In this document: positions 4,596-59,888 of the stretch, in pieces
Layout of the letters: each line of letters opens with the position of its first letter
Numbering within the stretch: position 1 is the first letter of the stretch
Assembly: GCF_041146345.1 (NCBI RefSeq)
Contig: NW_027191413.1
Span: 2,046,001 to 2,110,000, forward strand
Direction of reading: 5' to 3'
DNA length: 64,000 nucleotides
DNA from: Neodothiora populina
Lineage: Eukaryota
The notes under the pieces: model-generated
Database searches by the model: none
Seen by the model: only the letters and a program-made list of their open reading frames with translations
What the model was told of the DNA's origin: nothing
Made by a program: the position numbers and the translations under genes

Positions 4596-6537
4596 ACAAC
4601 AGCAACAACAACAAGGCTCACGAAGTGCTCTGACTCTTGGGCCCGCAGCTCCCATCAACAGCAGAGGAAGCAGCGATGGCGACTCAGACGGCCGTCAACA
4701 ATCCACCCAGATGCTGCCCGGGCTTGGTGCGCTACCTGGTCTGGGCGTCATCCCCGGCCTGGGTGCATCAAGTCGAAACACTGGACCAGCAAGCCCCGGA
4801 TCTATCGGCAGTCGTTCACCGAGTGTCTTTGCGAGTCCTGGAGCCAGCGCGAGCAACCTCGTCTTCAATTCCCCGGATAATGTCATGGACAGTGACCGTC
4901 GCTCCATTAGATCAAATAGGTCTCACCGAGCCGCGAGTGGCAGCATGGCGCACAGCGGGAGTCGCTTCACCCAGATCCTGGGTCTGGACAAGCTGAACCG
5001 TCAGAGAGGCAAGACCGTCTCCGAGGATGGCCCCGCATTTGGAAGCCTGACCAAGTCGCAAAGTCAATCGATGCCGCGTCAGTCGGAAGAGATGGACGAG
5101 GCCGAAGCTATTCTGGGACGCCGAAGAAATAGCAGTCACTCGGGTAACTTTTTTGGGGGTATGCTCGGTCGCGGCTCCGCGCATAGCAAAAGCACAGGGG
5201 CTGATGCAAGTGCCTCTGCGACTGCTCTGCCAAGCCAGAAGCACATTGCCACCCGTAGACGGCCCTTCAACATGTTCGGCTCCAAGACCGATGGATGGGC
5301 TGCCATACTAGGCCAAGAGAACAGACCCTCCTCTCCGCGACCAGGCTCCACTCACTCTACCGAGTTGCCGCGACCGTCTGGTGACTCGTTGACGGGATGG
5401 GGACTGTGGCCCTCTGCAGTCGAACCCTTCGGTCAGAGGAGCAGCCCGCTGAGCGCAGACTGGGCCGCTCCACCACCTGGTCTGTCTGGAGCTGGTAGCC
5501 TACCATGGGGATCAAGACATCAATCCCGTAGACCGTCGGTACAACACGGCGGAGCGAGTGGGATTCCGGACTATATACTGGAAGACGACGCAGATTACAG
5601 CTCCGAGCCAGACGACGGCCCACAAGGAAGACAACTGCCACCGATAGGCACCCGACCAGCCCCTCGTCCACCCTCGCCGAAGCTTAACCCGGCAGCCAAA
5701 GACTTCAAGTCACTCTTCTCCCGCAGTGACAGACGATCTCGCAACAAGGATGAATTAAGCAACAGGAGAAAAGGAGCCGCTGAAGAAGACGAAGAAGACG
5801 ACGACGACGACGACGACGACTTCGACACTTCGACTCCCCACCTAGCAAGCAAAGAACCTCTCCTCTTCGGCCGCCCCGACGACGACAACGACGACACCTT
5901 CTCCCCCTCGTCGACCTCGCCCTCCCAACGCCGCAACAAATCCCGCGACGACGACGCCTCCTCCCTACTATCCCGCACGGCCTCTCACACGCCCTCAGAA
6001 GGCCTCCTCTCCTCCCAACCCGCCGGCCCCGCATCCCTAGCATCAACAACCTCGACCTCCACAACAAAAGACAAAGAGTCCTTCATGGCAAAACTCACGC
6101 GCAAGTCATCAAGCGGCAAATTCAGCCTGCCGGTCTTCACGCGCTCGAGCGAGCGCCGAGGCCGCGCAGCCACCACTTCCGGCCCATCATCCCAGAACCC
6201 CAACACCAACAACAACCTCCTGTCTCCTCACGACGGCGAGAGCAGCGGCACCGGCTTCTCAGACGACATGGCCCTGGCGTCGAGTCTGGACTCTCTGTCT
6301 GCGGCAGGAGGAGACTACAACAACAAGCGCTCCACCGCGGCGGCGGGCGATGCTGGTGGGAACGGAAACGCAAGCGCCACAGGAAGCGCGAGGAGCTGGA
6401 GCAGTGTCTTTGGCGGCAGCATGAGGTCTTCGAAGCGCGAGAAGGAGAGGATCGCGGCTGCGGCTGCGGCTGCTGCTGCGGCAGCCGCTAGGGATGCTGA
6501 GGACGTCGATGATGATACCGAGGCGCTGAGACCTTGA
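2513..6537 (+). CDS. Membrane-anchored fibronectin type III / coiled-coil protein with polyQ tract (fungal family sometimes labelled AcrB-like)
   Basis: Exon 1 ends ...LCVGAALVW; intron 2743-2810 (GTAAGC...GCTGAC...AAG) joins in frame to LTYRACLVLNKPLEELVGLLGFEIP and the 1225-aa ORF. FnIII-like segment (LVLHWK...YDIQVNG...LRPEQLYIVRVITVN), long coiled coil, low-complexity tail. Start codon uncertain (several ATGs between 2513 and about 2672). Confidence 0.8.
4492..4614 (+). repeat. Coding (CAA/CAG)41 trinucleotide repeat, including a pure (CAA)16 run
   Basis: 41 consecutive Gln codons counted from the DNA. Confidence 0.97.
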
Positions 6538-40626: not shown

Positions 40627-41531
40627 GCTGTCCTGTACATGACTGTTGTGTCTTTTTCTGAGCGTCTTTTGGCAGGCGATGTTTTTGTATATAGGTACAA
40701 TACCAGTAGCGACGAGCCCGGGAGTTGTGCGAAAGATCATAATATCATCCATTGCCCCTCCGATCATATCACTTCAAGTAGTCGACCAGACGAGTGCCTG
40801 GATGTTTACTATATTGAGTGAGACACGGCAGAGGATCTGCATCTGAAACTGCCTGTACTGTACTTGTAGATGGCACAGCAGTGGATACGAGTGATTGACA
40901 GCAGTGGCTAATGCGGATAGCAATGAGATGTGGCGCTGTCAAGCTGTCGTACATACAGTACCTTGCGAGGTCTGGTGCAACCAAGGACGGGCAAGTAAGG
41001 AAACACGAAGGTAGATAGGTAGTCAAATAAGGTAAAGGCGGAAACGAAAAGGTGTGGGGGACGAAGGTTGAGCGCCAACTCTGTTCGGTTGGACGCGACC
41101 AGCCGGCGGAGATCGTCGTCAGAAATACAGTACTGTAACATGTACAGTAAGTAAGGTAGAGTACAGTTGAGGGAGGGAGAAGTAAGGTACTGTATACGTC
41201 GACTGCTGGATGACCATTCAGCACTCATCAGTCTCGACTCCCGACTTTTAACCTCCAACAACTCACCAACAATTGCCGCTCCTTCCCTTTCCACACATTC
41301 TCTGAACGGCGACGTCTCGAATCAGCCGGTGACATTGTCGTTTCCCTCCCTGTCTGCTATCTTTAAGATCGGCAAGGTAGCATTGGCATTCGCGTTCGCT
41401 ACACACGCACACACGCAATCGCCGGCCACGCAACACACACCCTCGGGCTGGCAGAAGCACAATCTCGACAGACGGAAGAGCAGAGCGCTGTGCAATCGCA
41501 CCAAGACCAGACGTAAGCCCATGTGGCCATC

Positions 41532-44500: not shown

Positions 44501-47386
44501 TGACAGCGCCAAATACCCTACCCCGAGTCATCAAAAACGGACGGCGGGATATCGGTAACATGCTCTGCCGCAAAGACTTTGACAATGGCGCACTGCCTTG
44601 TGTGCACGTCAAGTTTGGCATTGAGCGTTCCGTGCAAAATCTGCCACTGGGCGATGATCCAGGTGGCGGTATCTGGTCTCCACTGGCATCACAGGTCCGG
44701 CAAGATATTTTGATGATGCAAGACAAGCAGTATTCTGGTGTTGACCACCGAGAAGTCGTCATCGATGACAGAACTTCCACTCCTCTGAACCAATTTTCGA
44801 ATATCCATGACCTGATGCAATGGAGAGTCTCTCGACAGCCCGAGGAGCTGTCGTACTGCACAGTAGACGGTCGCGGTAGGGAAGGCAAAGGCGTTAATTG
44901 GAAAAAGTTTGATCTCAAAGTAGCTGCTGTGGCGGTCTATTTGCGCAACAAAGTCAAAGTGCAGGCTGGCGACCATCTGTTATTGATGTACACTCACTCG
45001 GAAGACTTTGTCTATGCCCTACATGCTTGCATGGCACTCGGAGCTATAGCAGTTCCCATGGCACCTGTTGATTCCAATCGACTCAACGAAGACTCCCCTG
45101 CGCTATTGCATGTCATCTCAGACTATCGGATCAAGGCCGTCATTGTCAATGCTGACGTCGACTCACTGCTTAGACAGAAGGTCGTTTCTCAGCACTTGAA
45201 ACAATCGGCTCTGATTCTCAAGGTCAACCTTCCTGGTATCTACAACACTACAAAGCCCTCGAAGCAGTCGCATGGCTGTCGAGAGCTCGGCTTCACGATG
45301 CGTCCAGCTTGGGTTGCGCCTGGATATCCCGTCGTGATTTGGACCTACTGGACGCCGGATCAAAGACGTGTTGCCGTGCAGCTTGGTCATGACACCATCA
45401 TGGCTTTGTGTAAGGTCCAGAAGGAAACTTGCCAGATGACGTCTACGCGACCAATCCTAGGATGCGTGAGATCTACAGTGGGCATTGGATTCTTACATAC
45501 ATGCATGATGGGTATCTTCTTGGCTGCTCCGACCTACCTCGTGTCACCAGTGGACTTTGCCGCAAACCCAAACATCCTCTTCCAGACACTGTCACGGTAC
45601 AAGATCAAAGACACCTATGCCACCGCGCAGATGCTTGAGCACGCAATAGCACACTCGGCGGGCAAGGCATCATCATTGATGGAACTCAAGAACCTCATGA
45701 TTGCCACTGATCAGAGACCTCGAGCCGACGTCTACTCGAAAGTCAGAGTCGCTTTTGCGTCAGCCGGATTGGACAGGACTGCCATCAACACTATATACAG
45801 TCATGTGCTCAACCCAATGATTGCGAGCCGGAGTTATATGTGTATTGAGCCAATAGAGCTGTACCTTGACTTGCACTCCTTGCGCCGTGGCCTGGTTGTG
45901 CCAGTCGATCCTGATACCGAGCCCTTTGCCTTGTTGGTACAAGACTCGGGCATGGTACCAGTCAGCACTCAGATCAGCATTGTCAATCCTGAAACCAATC
46001 AACTCTGCCTTGTCGGAGAATATGGAGAAATCTGGGTGCAGAGTGAAGCATCCGCATACTCTTTCTACGGGTCCAAGGACGCCTTCGACGCGGAAAGATT
46101 CAACGGTCGCACAGTTGATGGCGATCCTGGTGTGCGATATGTACGAACAGGAGACCTGGGCTTCTTGCACAATGTCAGCAGGCCTATCGGTCCTGGTGGC
46201 AGCATGGTCGAGATGCAAGTGCTGTTCGTACTTGGTGGTATCGGTGAGACATTCGAAGTGAATGGCCTGCAACACTTTCCGATCGACGTTGAAAATAGCG
46301 TTGAGCGATGCCATCGAGCTTTGCTACCAGGTGGATGGTGAGTTTCCTGATTGCGTCACAAGTGACTGTTTTCTTTGGCTGACTGATCGTTCTAGCGCAA
46401 TCTTCCAAGCAGGCTCCTTGCTCGTGCTCATTGCCGAATCTCGCACAAGAGCTTATCTTGCATCGATTGTCCCCGTCATTGTCAACACTGTTCTGAACGA
46501 GCACCAACTTGTCCTCGACATTGTTGCGTTTGTCCAAAAGGGCGATTTCCCACGATCACGTCTTGGTGAGAAGCAGCGAGGCAAGATCCTCGCGACCTGG
46601 GTGTCCCGCAAGATGCGCACAATAGCTCAATTCAGCATCCGCGACCCTGATGCTGAAGGCACCGTAGCACCTCAAGTACCAGACGACATGATGATGTCAA
46701 GTCAATATCGCGGCAGCATACAGTCCATGAGCAGAACCAACACAGGCACCTTCAATCGTGCCGCAACAGGCTCGGGAAGCATAAGCCGCAACCCAGGAAC
46801 AGCAGGCAGCTCGCTCCGCAACGTCGAAAGCATCTCACAAATGCCCATGAGAGAGGAAGACGAGTACTCGCGTCACCACAGCGTCAGCGACGGCGGCGAA
46901 GGCCTCACTCTCCAAATCGCCGACGCCTACCGCGACGATGATGACGACAACGACGATGACAGCGACCACGATCCTCTCGACGCACCGCCCATGATCCACG
47001 AAGAAGGTCTGTACATGGACGACGGCCGCAGCGACCGCACGCCGACAAACGAGCACCCGCACCAACGACGTCCGTTACAGCTCAACACCACCCTCGACTA
47101 CTCGCCCATTGACGGCCAACGGATGTTCTACGAGAGTCCCAACCCGTCGATGCCCATGTTCGAACAACAACAACACCTCGACCCCTCATCGTCGCAACAA
47201 CAGCAGTATCAACGCCAACAACAAGCAGAAAGCATCCATAACGCAGGCAGTGGCTACGAAGCGCATCAGGAACCCTATCTGCTCTATCGCCCGGCCTCGC
47301 CGATCCAGTTCCCGATGGACGACGAGCCGGAGCCAAGAAGAGGTGGGTTGCGCATCGCTAATCGCACCGAGTCGGATAGTGATTGA
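41532..47386 (+). CDS. CPS1: CPS1 / DIP2-family protein (DMAP1-binding domain plus two fatty acyl-AMP ligase-like domains)
   Basis: Exons 41532-41585, 41707-41729, 41805-46337, 46396-47386. N-terminal LRELEHELEEGDITQKGYEKRR; two adenylate-forming domains (LAYIEFS, VGEIWV, FLRTGLLG; GEIWV, YVRTGDLGF); FPRSRLGEKQRGKIL. Confidence 0.94.
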
Positions 47387-48879
47387 TCGACGACGTCTTT
47401 TTTCTCCTCTCTTTCTCCATCAGGGGGCCATGACGAAGGAGGAAAAGAGCATATACCTTCTTGTCCTCCTTGCCATCTCACGTCGGAAAGGGACTGTAGA
47501 CATGGGGCGTTTACACCTCTTCTCCAATCCCCGCCCATCATCTGAAAAAATACAGCTTCTTTTTGATCATGTTCACTTCCTTTTCCCTACCGTATGTATG
47601 TCATGTATACTGTACCGTCTGTACGTAGCCATACATACAATACATAGTTTGTCAGTTCTGTTTGAATAGAACGAAGATGAAAATGAAAACGGTAGAACAA
47701 AGACAGAAATGGCATACATTATACATTATACATTATTACACATATATCGCGCATATCACATATCATATTTTCCTCATGTCTGACACTAGCCAACAACTTG
47801 CATGATCGAGTGGCGTCTTGTCTCGTCTTGACTCGTCTCGTCCTTAGTCCTCTCGAATCACGCCGCGTGGTTGGTTTGGCCCTTTCTTTGTGATTAAACA
47901 TGGCGTTTATCCATCTGACATGGAGGGATGGAAACAAAAAAAGTCTGCCTTGCCTTTCCTTGCGTGATTGATTCACATCCTCCTCCTGACAGGAGCATAT
48001 GTTACTGTATCTCTACTCGGCTACCCAATGGAAGAAGAAGAAGAGCAAGTACATCAGACAAGGACTACCTGATAATAAGACGAAGACTGACACACAATAA
48101 TCAAAATACTAGACCTGTACAGATGCATCACGAGATGGGAACGGCAACTGCAATGTCACAGAGGCAGAGAGACAGTCAATTGTAGAGTGTGGAAAAAAAG
48201 GCGTAGAATTTAGATAAAATCACATTATTCTAAGAAGAGCCCTCGATAGTGATAATGATCTGATCAGAAAATAGAAAACCAAACATGCATGGGCTTTACA
48301 GATTGAAGCAAATACCATAATAAGTTTGAGATTGAAGGAGAGAGGAAGACAGAAAAAAAAGGTGAGAAGGTAGAAATAGAGTCATGAAGACTGAACGAAG
48401 ATGCACGCTGGTCAAGCGCAAAACGAGGATGAGTATAAGCAGTACAAACAAAAAGAGGAGAAAAAAATCAATCGTTGGTAGACATTCTTGTCCCCTTCTC
48501 ATTAATCTTCCGAATCGCAAGAGGCTTGTTTAACCCTAGTCCACTTTTGTCTTGAGAAATGCTGGATGCTTTTTTTTGGTCTGTAAGCATAGAACTCTAT
48601 GCTACGATGTGACAGGGAAATGGATTAGACGGTCGTAAGTTTTTCCGATGCAATAATTTGCTTTGGCTATATCCCCCATTCGTAGATAGGATTTCAGTAG
48701 TAGCGAAGAATCATTAAGAGCGCTTTTCTTTTTCTTTGTGTCTTTCTAATCGTGTCTGGTCATGGCTCAGATCTTTTTCTTGTTGATGAAAGAGTTATTC
48801 ATTATCAATCGTCAGCAAATGCCTCTTTGGCATTTTCTTATTTTTCGTGCTTCGTCGGAGACATAAGACAGTCTCCATA

Positions 48880-53827: not shown

Positions 53828-56800
53828 CTACTCCTCCCACAATGGAGCAACTACCTCGGCGGCCCTTTCAACCACAGCTTTGATTCTCTCTCTTAAGCTC
53901 TTGGTGCTACACTCGACTTCCAACGTCTCTAGCCAAATCTTAGCGCTGAACTTCTCATCCAAGGTGATTTCAAGTCCCGGTACAGGGATACCCGCTGCGT
54001 GCAAGCGCTCCAGCTCAGCCAACTCGCGCTGCGCTCGGACCTTCTCTGCCGCCATGTCATCGCCTTCTGTAGCCTCTTCAGATGCAGTGCCATTCTCTTG
54101 CAGCGAAGGTGGAAGTTTGGGTTTTTCGATGGGCTTGATGGCATCCTCGCCGAACTGAGCTTCGAGAAACATGCATAGCCTGGACAACCGTTCCTGTGGG
54201 TCCATGCTTGCATGAGGATTGCGCTTCGGCAGGTCTTCGTCTTGATCATGAGAGTGGGAGTGTGAGTGTGGTCTCGACGATTGCTTGACGGCGGCCGGAC
54301 TGCTTTCGACGGTAAAGAGAACAGCGAGAACGGCATCTGCAATTCCATCGTTGCTCATGTTGCCCTCCCACTCTACCTCAACTTCACCCTGAGCAAGGCA
54401 AGCGATTGTAACTGCATTCATGACTTGGAGAATCATGGGTGCTTCGCGGTTGATCTCCTCATCGGCGTCCTCTTCCTCTTGTTTAGTGCTATCGCCGTTG
54501 CTAGCACTATTCTTGCCGGCCTTGGGTGGGGCAGAGACGGTCTTGATCGAGCCAAAAGTACCTTCTAGGGCCCATTTAATTAGATCCACTCCCGCTGCCG
54601 ATAGCGTCAACCGTTGGCGGCATACGATCGTGGTTGTAGTCAACCCGGCATATTCTTTGAGGTCTTCTGCGGCCATGAGACTCAGCTTGAAGTCGTTTTG
54701 TACCAGTACGCCTGTGACGATCTGACCATCAGATGGCTGCACCTTGACCTTCTTATCGGTAGGTCCGCCAGCCTCATCTTCGGACGAAGGCGGTGACGGG
54801 AGTGCTTTTGGGACCTGGATCTCGTTCGCCAAGCGTCCGACAACCTTTGCGATCTTGTCTTGACGAAAAGGGATGCGAAGCTCCTCACAGTTGGCTGGCG
54901 AGAAGATCTTTGTCGGGACCGCTTTGCTGGCGTTTAGTGATAGAAGCTTGGACTTCAAGCGCATCATGTTTGTCTTCTCGCCGTGCACGAGAATGACGAC
55001 CGGCGCCTGGACTTCCTCGATGAATTCCCTGTTCTCTGTTCCGTCGACGTGAGCTGCGAACGAGTATTCGTCTACTGTGCACCTTCGAGGTATCATGACT
55101 TTTTCGCCGTCCGCTCCTGGCCTACCTCTGCCGCCGACGCCTTGCACGCGGCCTCCCACACCACGAGAGGTGACAGCAGGAATGCTTTCTGGCTCGGTCA
55201 TGATCATCTTGGCCATGGTACCTTCGACACTGTAACCAGTAATGACGACTCCATTCTTTGGATCAGGAGCCCAACGTTCAAGCAAAGCACGTGACACACC
55301 GTTCTGGAGCATACCAGGAGAGGCAAGCATTACACAGCCACCAACATCGTCGAAGCGGTCAAGAGACTTCAGACTTCGAATCCATCGGAAGTCCCAAGGT
55401 CCTCCGGTGCCAGAGCCCTCCTTGTCACTGCTTGCATCGTTGCTTGCTTCGGCAAGGCGGTTCTGAAATATGGATCTGATGTTGTCGTTCATGGCATCGA
55501 TGTAAGTTTGGTAGACCAGCATGCACTTCTTCGCGAGATTGCTTGCATAGTAAATGGGGTATCTTCGGAAGTCTGGGTGACGATTCCAATAGTCCTCAAG
55601 GATCAGCAAAAGCTCTTGAGCTCTACCGATAGCAAACACAGGCATGAGCACGCGACCGCCCCGGTTCAGAATATTCGTGACCGTCCTCATCAATTTCGTC
55701 TCGCGCTCCAAGCGAGGAATGTGTGAAGCAACGCCGAAGGTTGACTCGGTGATGAGCACGTCAACTTTGACGTTCTTGGGCACTGCTGCAGGGATAAGAT
55801 GCCTGTCGTGCTCCCGGGAGTAATCTCCTGTGAAAAGGATGTTGAGACCGGCGATTTCAATGAGAAACATTGCGGCACCCAGAACGTGACCAGCTGGGTA
55901 TGGCGTTATGCGCACAGATGAGTGTGTATGCGTGGTATGAAAGGCAACTGTCTGAATCAGAGGGAGGGTGGACAGGACGTCTTGTTCGGTGAAAAGCTGG
56001 TTCAAGTTCTCGGATGAAGCGTGAGTATTCCTGTATTAGGTCAGACGATGTCCAGTCGGGTCAGAATGTGGACGATTGAACTTACTGCACACGAACCGAG
56101 TCCTGCATAAGCCATTTGTAGATGGCTTTAGTAGGATGTGTCATGAAGACTCTTCCTTTGAAATTCGTCTTTGCTAGAACGTATGGAAGAGAGGCGGCAT
56201 GGTCCATGTGAAAGCTGTGGTGCTTGGTCAGCTCTCGAGCTCAACGGAGAGCCTTCTGGCGATAGGCAAACTGGAACAAAACTTCGGGAACACAGGAGTT
56301 GGATGCGGTCACAGACACAGCGGTGGTTAAAAGCAAATTTATATTTCGTTATGTACATAGTATACACGGATATACCCATGCCGACTCGAGGTGGGCAGAG
56401 GGAGAATCTGAAGTGCGTAGTGTGCTGGATGTAGGGCTATGCTGTGACCGCACTCTTGAACTCATGATACCAAGCGGAAAGAAAGGAAATAGAGTAATGG
56501 TAGTCGAGATACGTTACTTGACTTACTGGGTGATGAGTAGGATGTCTACGGTACTTAGATCAAACTCGTCGTAGAATGGTAATGAAGCCAGTCCATCGTA
56601 CGCGGGATGGACACCAGCATCGAGCTGTCGTATGGTCAGTACGAGCATTGTATGCTAAGGACAGGGGCCTCTTCTTTCCGGTCATACCATGATGGTCTTG
56701 CCCTTGTATTGAATGATGTGACATGATCTTCCGACTTCGTTACCACCACCAAGACAGATAAATGTAAGTTCATCTGAGGGGTCTACGGGCTCCTCTTGCT

Positions 56801-56837
56801 CTGGCGTAGCGGTGTCTAGCTTACGCTTGGTAGCCAT
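53828..56837 (-). CDS. YSH1: Pre-mRNA 3'-end endoribonuclease Ysh1 / CPSF73 (metallo-beta-lactamase, beta-CASP)
   Basis: Exons 56837-56688, 56624-56527, 56214-56086, 56030-53828. Motifs [82 protein letters not shown]. Confidence 0.97.
56304..56452 (-). promoter_or_regulatory. Long-range RNA stem in YSH1 intron 2 enclosing a poly(A)-signal-like block
   Basis: Transcript arms UGCGGUCACAG-CAUAGC (56452-56436) and GCUGUG-U-CUGUGACCGCA (56321-56304): 11 perfect bp plus 6 more with one G-U. The loop holds UGUA x2, AAAUAUAAA and UUUGCUUUU. Confidence 0.6.
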
Positions 56838-57726
56838 TGTGTATATTGTGTGGATGTCGGACGATCTGGCAGCGAAGTGTCGTTTAAGTGGCAGGCGCGC
56901 AACAGTGTTCAGGGCGTGTCAAGGTACGGACTGTTTCCTCTTTGGTGACAGACTGGCTTTATAGCATCGTCTCGGCGGCACTGAGAGCTCTAAAAGTTCT
57001 ATTTTAAGACAGCAGGACGTCAAGCTGTTTTGTGAGTATATCGTCAACAACAGGATCAGTGTCAGACCGTCGATTCAGGGTAGACAGGGTAGACAACAGG
57101 ACTGGAGTGAGCGTCGAAAGGTAGCGCAAGGAAGCACGGAAGTTACCGCCAAGCCAAGCGGCTCTTTCGTGAAAGGTGAAAGCGTCCAGCAACCAAAGGA
57201 TTGATGCTACTGGATGACACTGTCTATACAGGTAATCTTTGTATACCTTACCTTTGGTCCCTTTCAGTTGGGTTCTTCATTACTAAAGGTCATCTACGCG
57301 CATAATTTGCTCATATTGTCGCATCGACCACAGTCATATTATTGATACACGATCTGTCTCGCCTATACAACGTTGGCAGACAATTTATTCATTGCGCTCC
57401 AAGCGACCTTGCTAGGCTACCACGCGAGATCACGCATACACGACCTGAATACCGTCATCCAGCACCCAGAGTTATAGCAATAACTCAGATTGACGATTTA
57501 CAAAAACAAACACTTTTACTCATTACATCTCCATCTCTGACCCATATTCCTAGGAGGCAAGAGCATGGACTGAGTGTGCGCGCGCATTGAGGAAGTCGCT
57601 GCGCCGCAGCTACGTCTTCTTGCAGAAAGTGTGCGCAACACCGCTCACAACATTGAGCTTTGGTCTCGGATAAGGAAGGCACGCGTGGTAGTGTAAGGTG
57701 GAGAGGATCACCTTCGACATTTAGTC

Positions 57727-59888
57727 ATGTCGCAACAACCATCACCATCGCCTCACGGCCAGCAGCAGCCATACCAGCAGCAGCCACAGATCACACAGCA
57801 ATCTCCGCAGCAGTCACCGCAGCCATTGCAGCAACCTTTGCCGCAAGCGCCACAGGTCCAGGTCCACCAAACGCAGCAGGTGCAGCAAACACAGCAGCCA
57901 CATGTACCGCAGCTACCACCACAACCTCAACAACAGCAGCAGCAGCAGCAGCAGCAGATGCAACCTGTCCATCCTCCTGCGTCTTTCCCTGTCTCTGCAA
58001 CTACTCCTGCCGTGCCACATGTTCAACCACCGGTCAACAGGCCCTACTCTCCCTACCAAAGCGCGCCCTCACCTGGACCTGGTATCGCGGTGCCGCCAAA
58101 CAAGAGACAGCGCCTGTCGCCCAATCCTTCATCACCACAGACAGTGCAGTATGCTTCGCCTGATGCTCCCTACCAGACAACGCCATACCCGAACACCCCG
58201 ACTCCGTACGCGCAGAACACGCCATACAACTCCTATTCTCCTGTCGCTGCCCCCAGCCCTCCACCGTTCAATACGCCTCAGCCATATGCTGCGTCACCTG
58301 TCGCTGGAGGCGCCATGGGTCCTCCTCCACGTCCCAATGCAGACAAGCCCGAAAAGGAAGAAAAGGACAAGATTCACGACATCAACGATGTGACCGACGT
58401 GTTTCACGGCTCAGGCATTGATTTGCGAGAGGAGGAAAACTACATGAGCAGTACCTTTCGCAACACACATGCCACCGGCTCGTACAATAACTCCTTTGGA
58501 TCCACCTCGACTGTGCCCTCACCCAATAGTAGTTTTGGTTATCTGAGCCAGGGTAACCTGGGTTCTCAGACAGCTTTTGCAGGCAACGGCCCCGTCTCGC
58601 AAGCCCCTGCGACTCAAGAGGACATACAGAAGGAGGTTGAGCGCAAACACGCAGCCGCAGCCCGCGAGCTGGCCATCAGTCGGCAGCAGCACCTTAAGGA
58701 CTCATTCCTCGTATCCAACAGAATCCGCCACCGCATGCATCAGGTCGCCTACGAACAAGGTGTTGCTTTAAACGTCGAAGGACTATTCGACAAGATTGAT
58801 CCAACCCCGAATACTCAGACCATGACCGGCCCGAATGGTCAAGGTATTGCTGCGATCCAGGACAAGGACAAGCGGGGCCTGCAGGAGAAACCCAAAGATG
58901 GTTACCTTCAGGAGACAGCTCCACTTGCTGATATTCTCACTCTCGTCTCCGTCGCGGCTAACGAACGCCTGAGAGCTATGCTCGACGATGCGTATCGCCT
59001 GGCTCGTGCTCGGCGTTATGGCAGTCATGGCCTGGTGCCGCCAGACTTGGCCGACCTCGCAACCGGGGATGATCCTCAGCCGACCACTGCTGTTCCGGAT
59101 CCCATAATCGACCCGGAGTGGGAGAATCGCAAGAGGGGGTCGGATGGGAACATCAAAGGTGAGTTCCGACTATGATTATGATCTTGAGTCTGTACTGACA
59201 TATATATAAAGCCAAGGACTCCGCCAGCCCTGCGCCTACGATATCCTTTTCCGATACATTGTCGAAGCACCTTATCAATCTGGCCATACAAGATCGCGAT
59301 GCCGAGAAAGAGCGTGTCAGGAAACGGCAGGAGCGTGCAAGACGTCTGGCAGCGAAAAACGACGACGGTGCGATGGATCTCAAGCCGGACATCAGCACAC
59401 CAAGCGCAACACCAGCGCCTGAGACCTCTCAAGTCGCGCCGGAGAAGCCGATGACCAAAAAGGAGCGTGAGAGGCAGGCTAAGCTGGGACAGACGGAAGA
59501 TGTCCTGCACAAGAACGCCAATGTGACGGCAGCAATGGCATTGGGATTAGGCAAGAAGAAGAAATACAATTGGATGAGTGGTGGTGCATCGGCAGTACCA
59601 TCTAATCCTTTCAAGGCAGCCAAGCCTGCTCCAAGTCCCATGGCGAACGGCACACCGTCCGGGAAAAGTCCTGCAGGCAGTGCCGAGCCCAAGATCGACA
59701 AGGCTCTGCAAGTGCGAGAACGGAAATGGGGTGGCTGGCGCGAAGACGGCATCGAAGGGCGGGGGATTCAGATCCGGGACTGGGTCCAAGTCCTCGAGCG
59801 CGATGGAAGGGAAAAGAAGGCTCTCCAAAAGGCGTTGTTGCGGCTCGACAGCCCTAGTCCCGCACCGTCTGGCACTCCAGGCCCGTAG
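57727..59888 (+). CDS. TAF4: TFIID subunit Taf4 family protein
   Basis: Q/P-rich N-terminus, GSGIDLREEE, histone-fold-like LVSVAANERLRAML. Intron 59159-59211, then ANVTAAMALGLGKKKKYNWM and IQIRDWVQVLERD. Confidence 0.88.

Follow-up and report, generated by a model that had tools for sequence, protein, structure and literature searches.

The DNA analysed here, a stretch of 64,000 nt from Neodothiora populina (positions 2,046,001 to 2,110,000 of contig NW_027191413.1; hereafter, the window), carries on its minus strand the gene for the endonuclease YSH1/CPSF73, whose second intron combines a conserved stem with a motif resembling a poly(A) signal and probably regulates the gene, as judged from sequence comparison. 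The coding sequence begins with an ATG at 56837 and runs through exons at 56837-56688, 56624-56527, 56214-56086 and 56030-53828 to a stop codon at 53828-53830, interrupted by introns of 63, 312 and 55 nt (Table 1). The 859-aa product is 100% identical to the entry P0001, which is listed at NCBI as a hypothetical protein of N. populina. Its homologues carry the name endoribonuclease ysh1, and the nearest solved structures found with phmmer in the PDB are human CPSF3 (7.5e-110) and yeast Ysh1 (5.1e-107). The host gene of intron 2 therefore codes for a core factor of cleavage and polyadenylation.

Table 1. Features of the YSH1 gene and its intron 2, numbered from the first letter of the window.
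Feature	Positions	Strand	Remarks
YSH1/CPSF73 gene	53828..56837	minus	four exons, 859 aa, stop codon within the range
Intron 2	56215..56526	minus	312 nt, phase 2; GUAAGU 5′ splice site at 56521-56526, CACAG 3′ end at 56215
5′ arm of long-range helix	56436..56463	minus	C/A-rich; conserved GGUCAC core at 56444-56449
UAUGUACAUAA	56349..56359	minus	efficiency-element-like; contains the UAYAUAR core at 56349-56355
A-rich tract	56337..56348	minus	includes AAUAUA; defined by composition
U-rich tract, then AACCACC	56322..56336	minus	putative cleavage zone; tract defined by composition
3′ arm of long-range helix	56296..56321	minus	G/U-rich; conserved GUGACC core at 56307-56312
Branch-point-like GCUGACC	56226..56232	minus	14 nt 5′ of the 3′ splice site; read from the sequence

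Intron 2 interrupts the gene between the second and the third base (CA/C) of the first His codon of the catalytic motif HxHxDH, here HFHMDH. An earlier reading of this DNA, made from the sequence alone (the sequence-only reading), had stated that reading into the intron leads at once to CAG UAA. This is the case, and it is a trivial consequence of a phase-2 intron that begins with GUAAGU. The same reading took intron 2 to be the longest of the window; among the three introns of YSH1 it is the longest. The one sequencing run compared with the gene gave two short contig pieces, both within exon 4 and neither touching intron 2. The resulting open reading frame (ORF) comprises 82 native residues and one Gln, 83 aa in all, and the intronic site precedes the essential domains, so that an inactive product is expected.

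The evolutionary history of the intron was followed in metagenome contigs, which were scanned with the first 330 residues of exon 4. This yielded 18 loci, 14 of which include the N-terminal exons; L004, L005 and L006 are identical, and 13 distinct introns are available when that of the window is counted among them. An intron of 247-345 nt occupies the identical codon and phase in 14 of the 14 orthologous loci. Short orthologous introns would have told against the sequence-only reading; all 13 are long. The neighbouring introns are unstable: eight of the 13 lack intron 1, and at least five lack intron 3. By the nearest named protein, L014 adjoins the window protein (89%); L003, L004 and L009 group with Aureobasidium (89-96%) and L001 is Aureobasidium-like (79%); L008, L010 and L011 group with ‘Dothideomycetes sp. 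NU457’ (87-91%), L012 and L013 with Meristemomyces (70-75%), L017 with Hortaea (88%) and L015 with the Leotiomycete Amorphotheca (81%). Judged by these relatives, the sample covers Dothideales-like and Mycosphaerellales-like lineages and one Leotiomycete-like lineage. Outside the splice signals intron 2 is barely alignable, with 34-51% pairwise identity to the window, and branch sites of the CURAY type stand at the matching place in the orthologous introns. The Leotiomycete-like ortholog (L015:1895-2214) has an intron of 320 nt at the same position, with a 3′ splice site that appears to be AAG.

The first element of the intron is a long-range helix. A perfect inverted repeat of 11 nt (56304-56314 and 56442-56452) is lengthened in the minimum free energy (MFE) fold to a stem of about 17 bp with one bulge, to which outer GAGUU/AACUC pairs are added, so that the stem described in the sequence-only reading, 11 perfect base pairs with possible extension, is borne out both by the inverted-repeat search and by the fold. 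The whole intron of the window folds with a z-score of -3.32, none of 100 dinucleotide shuffles being as stable, and a second set of 100 shuffles gave -2.75. When the helix is formed, the distance between the 5′ splice site and the branch point of the window intron shrinks from about 290 to about 125 nt.

GGUCAC-like and GUGACC-like cores were found in nine of the 13 introns, 137-188 nt apart. These nine were aligned by plain MAFFT with no structural guidance, L008, L010, L011 and L015 being excluded for having no such cores, and RNAalifold returned one consensus helix of 10 bp. This helix pairs in 92.2% of its 90 cells (sequence by base pair), and four of its pairs show double-sided changes (14 cells). 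Its covariation score of 0.411 compares with 0.190 +/- 0.040 in shuffled alignments and was reached in 0/500 of them, and sliding the partner by 1-3 columns left only 21-40% of cells paired. Setting the pair table against the lineages gave at least eight independent compensatory events. G-U occurs in 6/90 cells (one pair, for instance, is G-C, G-U and A-U among the window, L003 and L004/L009), a finding that favours pairing in the sense-strand RNA. Inward of the core, every lineage extends the helix with a sequence of its own. The conservation of the stem, which the sequence-only reading had put forward for checking, therefore holds, with covariation, for nine introns and fails for the other four.

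The second element lies in the loop, whose sequence was found as it had been quoted. In the RNA, the order is UAUGUACAUAA, the A-rich tract, the U-rich tract with AACCACC and, directly after it, the G/U-rich 3′ arm. The segment UAUGUACAUA at 56349-56358 is a perfect 10-nt palindrome that reads identically on both strands, and part of it forms a small hairpin of its own in the MFE fold. The heptamer UAYAUAR is present in all 13 introns; its position is 136-198 in the twelve that are Dothideomycete-like and 245 in L015. Dinucleotide shuffles contain it in only 1.6-16.6% of cases, depending on the intron, and the chance product is about 5e-8 when the largest value of each of six lineage groups is taken, for a motif chosen post hoc. 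An A-rich and then a U-rich stretch follows the heptamer in 9/13 introns, with 28-56% A against 19-25% intron-wide, and the U content of the tract is 33-57% in 13/13. In 10 of the 13 predicted ensembles the region of the motif is less paired than the remainder of the intron; L014 and L001 show about equal pairing of the two, and in L012 the motif region is the more paired.

These comparisons modify the earlier description of a conserved block of UGUA and A-rich elements. The UA-rich core is universal and the A-rich then U-rich succession frequent, whereas UGUA is absent from three introns. UGUA, the proposed CFIm site, is in this respect a poor fit; the conserved core is UAYAUAR instead, a word of the yeast efficiency-element type. 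The same three absences (L001, L012 and L017) rule out a Pumilio (PUF) site, UGUANAUA, as the conserved feature. In the L015 intron, UACAUAG lies toward the 3′ part, inside a different helix of 10 bp (GGCAGGUGCA/UGCAUCUGCC), and a separate UGUAUAC with an A-rich stretch is found further upstream.

Published layouts of fungal poly(A) signals provide a yardstick for the loop. In A. oryzae, an A-rich element at -29 to -14 (top hexamer AAUGAA) has U-rich flanks and cleavage takes place at CA, and the efficiency elements of yeast are given as UAUAUA, UAUGUA and UACAUA in the available text of the same source (PMC3111234). For F. graminearum, the accessible part of a preprint lists TAKMTA as efficiency, AATWVA as positioning, TTTTTT as upstream and HGTGAH as downstream motif; AATWVA is called position-specific and HGTGAH peaks downstream of the poly(A) sites (10.1101/2021.11.08.467853). 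The spacing in the window fits these layouts, with UACAUA about 30 nt before CA, the A-rich tract at about -23 to -13 and the U-rich tract just before CA, the putative cleavage position having itself been placed by the A. oryzae and F. graminearum layouts. UAUAUA or UACAUA occurs in 13/13 introns, in rows that were anchored on the same motif, and TAKMTA in 6/13. HGTGAH is found in 3/13 and its GUGA core at +43 to +73 in 9/13; UGUGAC in the 3′ arm of the window fits it, and eight of the nine helix-bearing orthologs have GUGA within that arm, three of them with the full HGTGAH. By its sequence, the cassette is poly(A)-like in order and composition and is without the canonical positioning word, an absence that would fit a weak regulated site and an uncleaved protein-binding site equally well.

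Conservation of position, length, UA-rich core and covarying helix across Dothideomycete-like lineages makes a functional reading plausible and supports it in part. The best such reading, for which a probability slightly below 0.4 seems appropriate, is a structure-gated intronic poly(A) cassette that would compete with splicing and limit the level of Ysh1. According to this proposal, intron 2 would be a conserved cis-regulatory RNA module. Its C/A-rich 5′ arm (GGUCAC) pairs across about 140-190 nt with the G/U-rich 3′ arm (GUGACC), enclosing a loop in which UAYAUAR, A-rich and U-rich elements follow one another in poly(A)-signal order, the last of them stopping within a few nucleotides of the 3′ arm. 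The 5′ arm is transcribed about 140 nt earlier than the 3′ arm, its complement. The cassette would be a weak intronic poly(A) site with a downstream G/U-rich element that the formed helix may mask, because the G/U-rich 3′ arm directly follows the putative cleavage zone; the sequence-only reading had the stem present the poly(A) signal, and the geometry suggests masking of the downstream element instead. The helix would also bring the 5′ splice site nearer to the branch point and so favour splicing. When the activity of the cleavage and polyadenylation factor (CPF) and cleavage factor I (CF I) is high, the nascent RNA could be cut before the helix forms or instead of its formation, so that the loop would sense the level of Ysh1/CPF. 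Such a cut would leave an mRNA for the 83-aa fragment without the catalytic centre, and the resulting fall in Ysh1 would close a negative feedback. That the Ysh1 endonuclease is held in check by cutting its own pre-mRNA through a helix-masked cassette, in a feedback conserved across the Dothideomycetes, is less likely than not. The Leotiomycete-like locus, together with database models that start late (see below), is a hint that the feedback may reach much of the Pezizomycotina.

Several findings weigh against a poly(A) cassette. The host intron of the 3′-processing factor CstF-77 has a weak 5′ splice site; that of YSH1 intron 2, in contrast, is strong, with GUAAGU in 11/13 introns (GUGAGU and GUAAGC in one each), and splicing should therefore be efficient. 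The positioning hexamer AATWVA occurs in 0/13 introns, one of the five top hexamers of A. oryzae in only 2/13 and a run of at least five U in only 3/13, and the A-rich tract is missing in three Mycosphaerellales-like introns (22% A) and in L015. No similar cassette was seen in the true YSH1 3′ flanks of the orthologs, and an efficiency-element-like hexamer stands at only six of the roughly 21 ORF ends in the window; these results suggest that the cassette is unlike the everyday poly(A) signal of the lineage, although the 3′-flank surveys, like the UAYAUAR census, are too sparse to decide. The helix, too, has its exceptions. It is lacking, as modelled, in L008, L010, L011 and L015, and RNAalifold found only a weak enclosing helix of 6 bp in the three NU457-like introns. 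A covariance model built from the nine introns retrieved only its own nine training sequences from 130,849 bases (window and loci, E<=10). Whole-intron folding z-scores are clearly negative for no introns but those of the window, L014 and L012; those of L004, L009 and L017 are modest, and six of the 13 lie at about zero or above. Two further measures of the arms say little: with RNAduplex, 0/40 shuffles reach the observed energy in five orthologs and 7-21/40 in five others, a statistic made uninformative by long interior loops, and in an arm swap the cognate arms averaged -16.1 kcal/mol against -12.0 kcal/mol for non-cognate ones, an unclean comparison in that the inner arms share words of the GCACA/UGUGC type.

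The main rival, which is itself on the unlikely side, is a control of splicing that involves no cleavage. The helix would act as a ‘zipper’ that enables the splicing of an over-long intron, and the single-stranded UAYAUAR/A-rich segment would bind an hnRNP (Hrp1-like or another UA-binding protein) that tunes retention, the retained form stopping unproductively at CAG UAA. The shortened distance between the 5′ splice site and the branch point, the low pairing of the motif region in 10 of the ensembles and the general absence of the canonical positioning hexamer all agree with it, and a preprint describes, in its available part, that introns of F. graminearum are retained more often when HRP1, RNA15 or FIP1 is deleted. 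Annotation offers a further argument. Among the 120 homologue models listed, 14 start at a residue matching 81-107 of the window protein, right after intron 2 (P0021, P0023, P0027, P0029, P0035, P0036, P0039, P0051, P0058, P0064, P0080, P0082, P0096 and P0103), under names that include Sarocladium, Macrophomina, Remersonia, Fusarium solani (‘variant 2’) and F. falciforme. This would fit frequent retention or mis-splicing, but the models may be plain errors: they reflect either a failure of gene callers on intron 2 in other classes or annotated retained or alternative transcripts. Intron 2 appears to defeat gene callers, and many YSH1 proteins in databases thus lack their first 80-106 residues. 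What control of splicing leaves unexplained is why the intron stays long, why A-rich, U-rich and G/U-rich elements follow in that order and why GUGAC is conserved in the 3′ arm. A related alternative of the sequence-only reading, a poison cassette in the loop, lost ground, as inspection of the aligned introns by eye shows no conservation of the internal splice sites proposed for it.

There is a small probability that the intron has no function. It would then be an ancient long intron in slow decay, whose stable GC-rich inverted repeat and UA-rich word have survived through chance or descent. The sample comprises only about five or six independent lineages, the motif was selected after inspection, the helix is missing from four introns and the z-scores are unremarkable in half of the orthologs. 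Against this, motif and helix persist, and the helix covaries, while the remainder of the intron has become unalignable, and the neighbouring introns were lost repeatedly and intron 2 never.

Still less probable is a stable non-coding RNA within intron 2 that belongs to a class not yet described, is delimited by the helix and is freed after splicing. Intron-hosted RNAs typically show a covarying closing helix together with a single conserved unpaired motif, and intronic snoRNAs are described as common in the Pezizomycotina in the available text of one screen (PMC8216456). Nevertheless, Rfam 15, snoRNAs included, gave no match in the window intron at E<=10, nor at E<=1 in the orthologous introns from 10 loci, so that the structure is not accounted for by a known family, an explanation that would have told against the sequence-only reading; the two sub-threshold matches in the scanned stretch lie outside intron 2 and on the opposite strand. 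By eye there are neither C/D boxes nor an H/ACA layout that needs the 3′ arm, conservation is lacking across the approximately 100 nt that separate the 5′ arm from the motif, and the RNA is absent from the main text of the fungal screens PMC8216456 and PMC5640933. In L001, a hairpin-like inverted repeat at 5064-5174 scores 37.8 bits, against a gathering score of 90, with two families of miRNA precursors on both strands; it is most likely merely a long palindrome downstream of YSH1. No second copy of the element was found in the 64-kb window or in the 130,849 bases of window and loci, and the orthologous conservation argues against a miniature inverted-repeat transposon within the intron.

Least probable of all is a DNA element, an enhancer or an internal promoter for an N-terminally truncated isoform with GGTCAC/GTGACC as protein-binding half-sites, for although the hexamer cores are conserved beyond the need of pairing and many database models start just downstream, at M86 or M107, the pairs flanking the core covary, with the G-U cells pointing to sense-strand RNA, an antisense reading pairs about 88% of cells against 92% in sense (own count), and a product starting past intron 2 would be without the first His of the catalytic motif.

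The surroundings of the gene place the intronic cassette in context. UAYAUAR occurs only 12 times on both strands of the window (128 kb), and two of these occurrences are the palindromic intron site. Among 41 TAYATA sites on both strands, the intron site alone is followed by A-rich and T-rich tracts; no gene end in the window passes this composite scan, which consequently gives no means of confirming that the cassette is a poly(A) signal of local type. The sequence-only reading had pointed to a similar TGTA-rich block at 47591-47647, after a gene it labelled CPS1. A block rich in UGUA and UACAUA does lie there, about 205-260 nt past the stop codon 47384-47386, which closes the stop-to-stop ORF 46262-47386. 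On the plus strand of 47591-47700, UACAUAG at 47641 is followed by a U-rich and then an A-rich stretch (AAAAUGAAAA), and this block, about 205-300 nt past the stop codon, is probably the 3′ end region of the gene ending at 47384-47386. The window holds three other UGUAYAUA sites: those at 40686 (plus) and 15053 (minus) each follow a long same-strand ORF, 60 and 83 nt past its stop, and the third is antisense within an ORF. The divergent neighbour of YSH1 (57697-59175, plus strand) encodes a Gln/Pro-rich protein with a poly-Q run, and the two genes have an 860-nt promoter region in common.

In the literature searched, no description of a regulatory intron in fungal YSH1 was found. The words YSH1, CPSF and polyadenylation are absent from the main text of two fungal structured-RNA screens (PMC8216456 and PMC5640933); the queries of the first, according to its available text, were A. 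fumigatus, N. crassa, S. cerevisiae, C. albicans and S. pombe, none of them a Dothideomycete. Neither ‘intronic’ nor ‘autoregulat’ occurs in a review of alternative polyadenylation in fungi from 2025 (PMC12667328), and in two papers rich in YSH1, autoregulation appears in the reference lists only. How the level of the cleavage and polyadenylation machinery is controlled is only partly understood, and black yeasts such as Aureobasidium, being tractable, would lend themselves to an easy test of a helix-gated cassette in YSH1.

Among known systems, the helix recalls the long introns of budding yeast, in which ‘zipper’ stems between the 5′ splice site and the branch point shorten the effective intron. 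The likeness is one of geometry only, and zipper stems are not known to enclose a conserved poly(A)-like cassette. Attenuation of NRD1 and HRP1 in yeast is alike in that a termination factor is regulated through early termination of its own transcript; unlike YSH1, these genes use the Nrd1-Nab3-Sen1 pathway in their 5′ regions and, in the available parts of the sources, involve no intron and no helix. For RPL9B of S. cerevisiae, a fungal stem-loop is described that switches the mode of termination (PMC8047918). There, as proposed for YSH1, an RNA structure by a poly(A) site chooses between a productive and an unproductive 3′ end in a feedback. In contrast to the intronic element of YSH1, the RPL9B element is a 3′ UTR structure to which the ribosomal protein binds, and the alternative that it selects is non-poly(A) termination, as far as the accessible text describes it.

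The closest parallels are CstF-77/su(f) and PCF11, for which feedback by intronic or premature termination is documented (PMC5869017, PMC7471841). Vertebrate PCF11 is a cleavage and polyadenylation factor that limits its own level by premature termination in its own gene; YSH1 is another subunit in another clade, and no RNA helix is reported for PCF11 in the available text. CstF-77/su(f) shares with YSH1 a host gene for a core 3′-processing factor and a poly(A) cassette in an early intron (a candidate one in YSH1) that is conserved among species, and use of the site gives, or in YSH1 would give, a truncated inactive product. Relative to both, premature-polyadenylation feedback on the catalytic subunit, or in fungi, is unreported in the literature searched. 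YSH1 differs from CstF-77/su(f) in that the host is the endonuclease itself, in that the organisms are fungi and in the covarying long-range helix around the cassette, the use of which is here putative. If the proposal is true, a conserved, helix-gated cassette would add the kinetics of RNA folding to the competition between splicing and polyadenylation seen in these systems.

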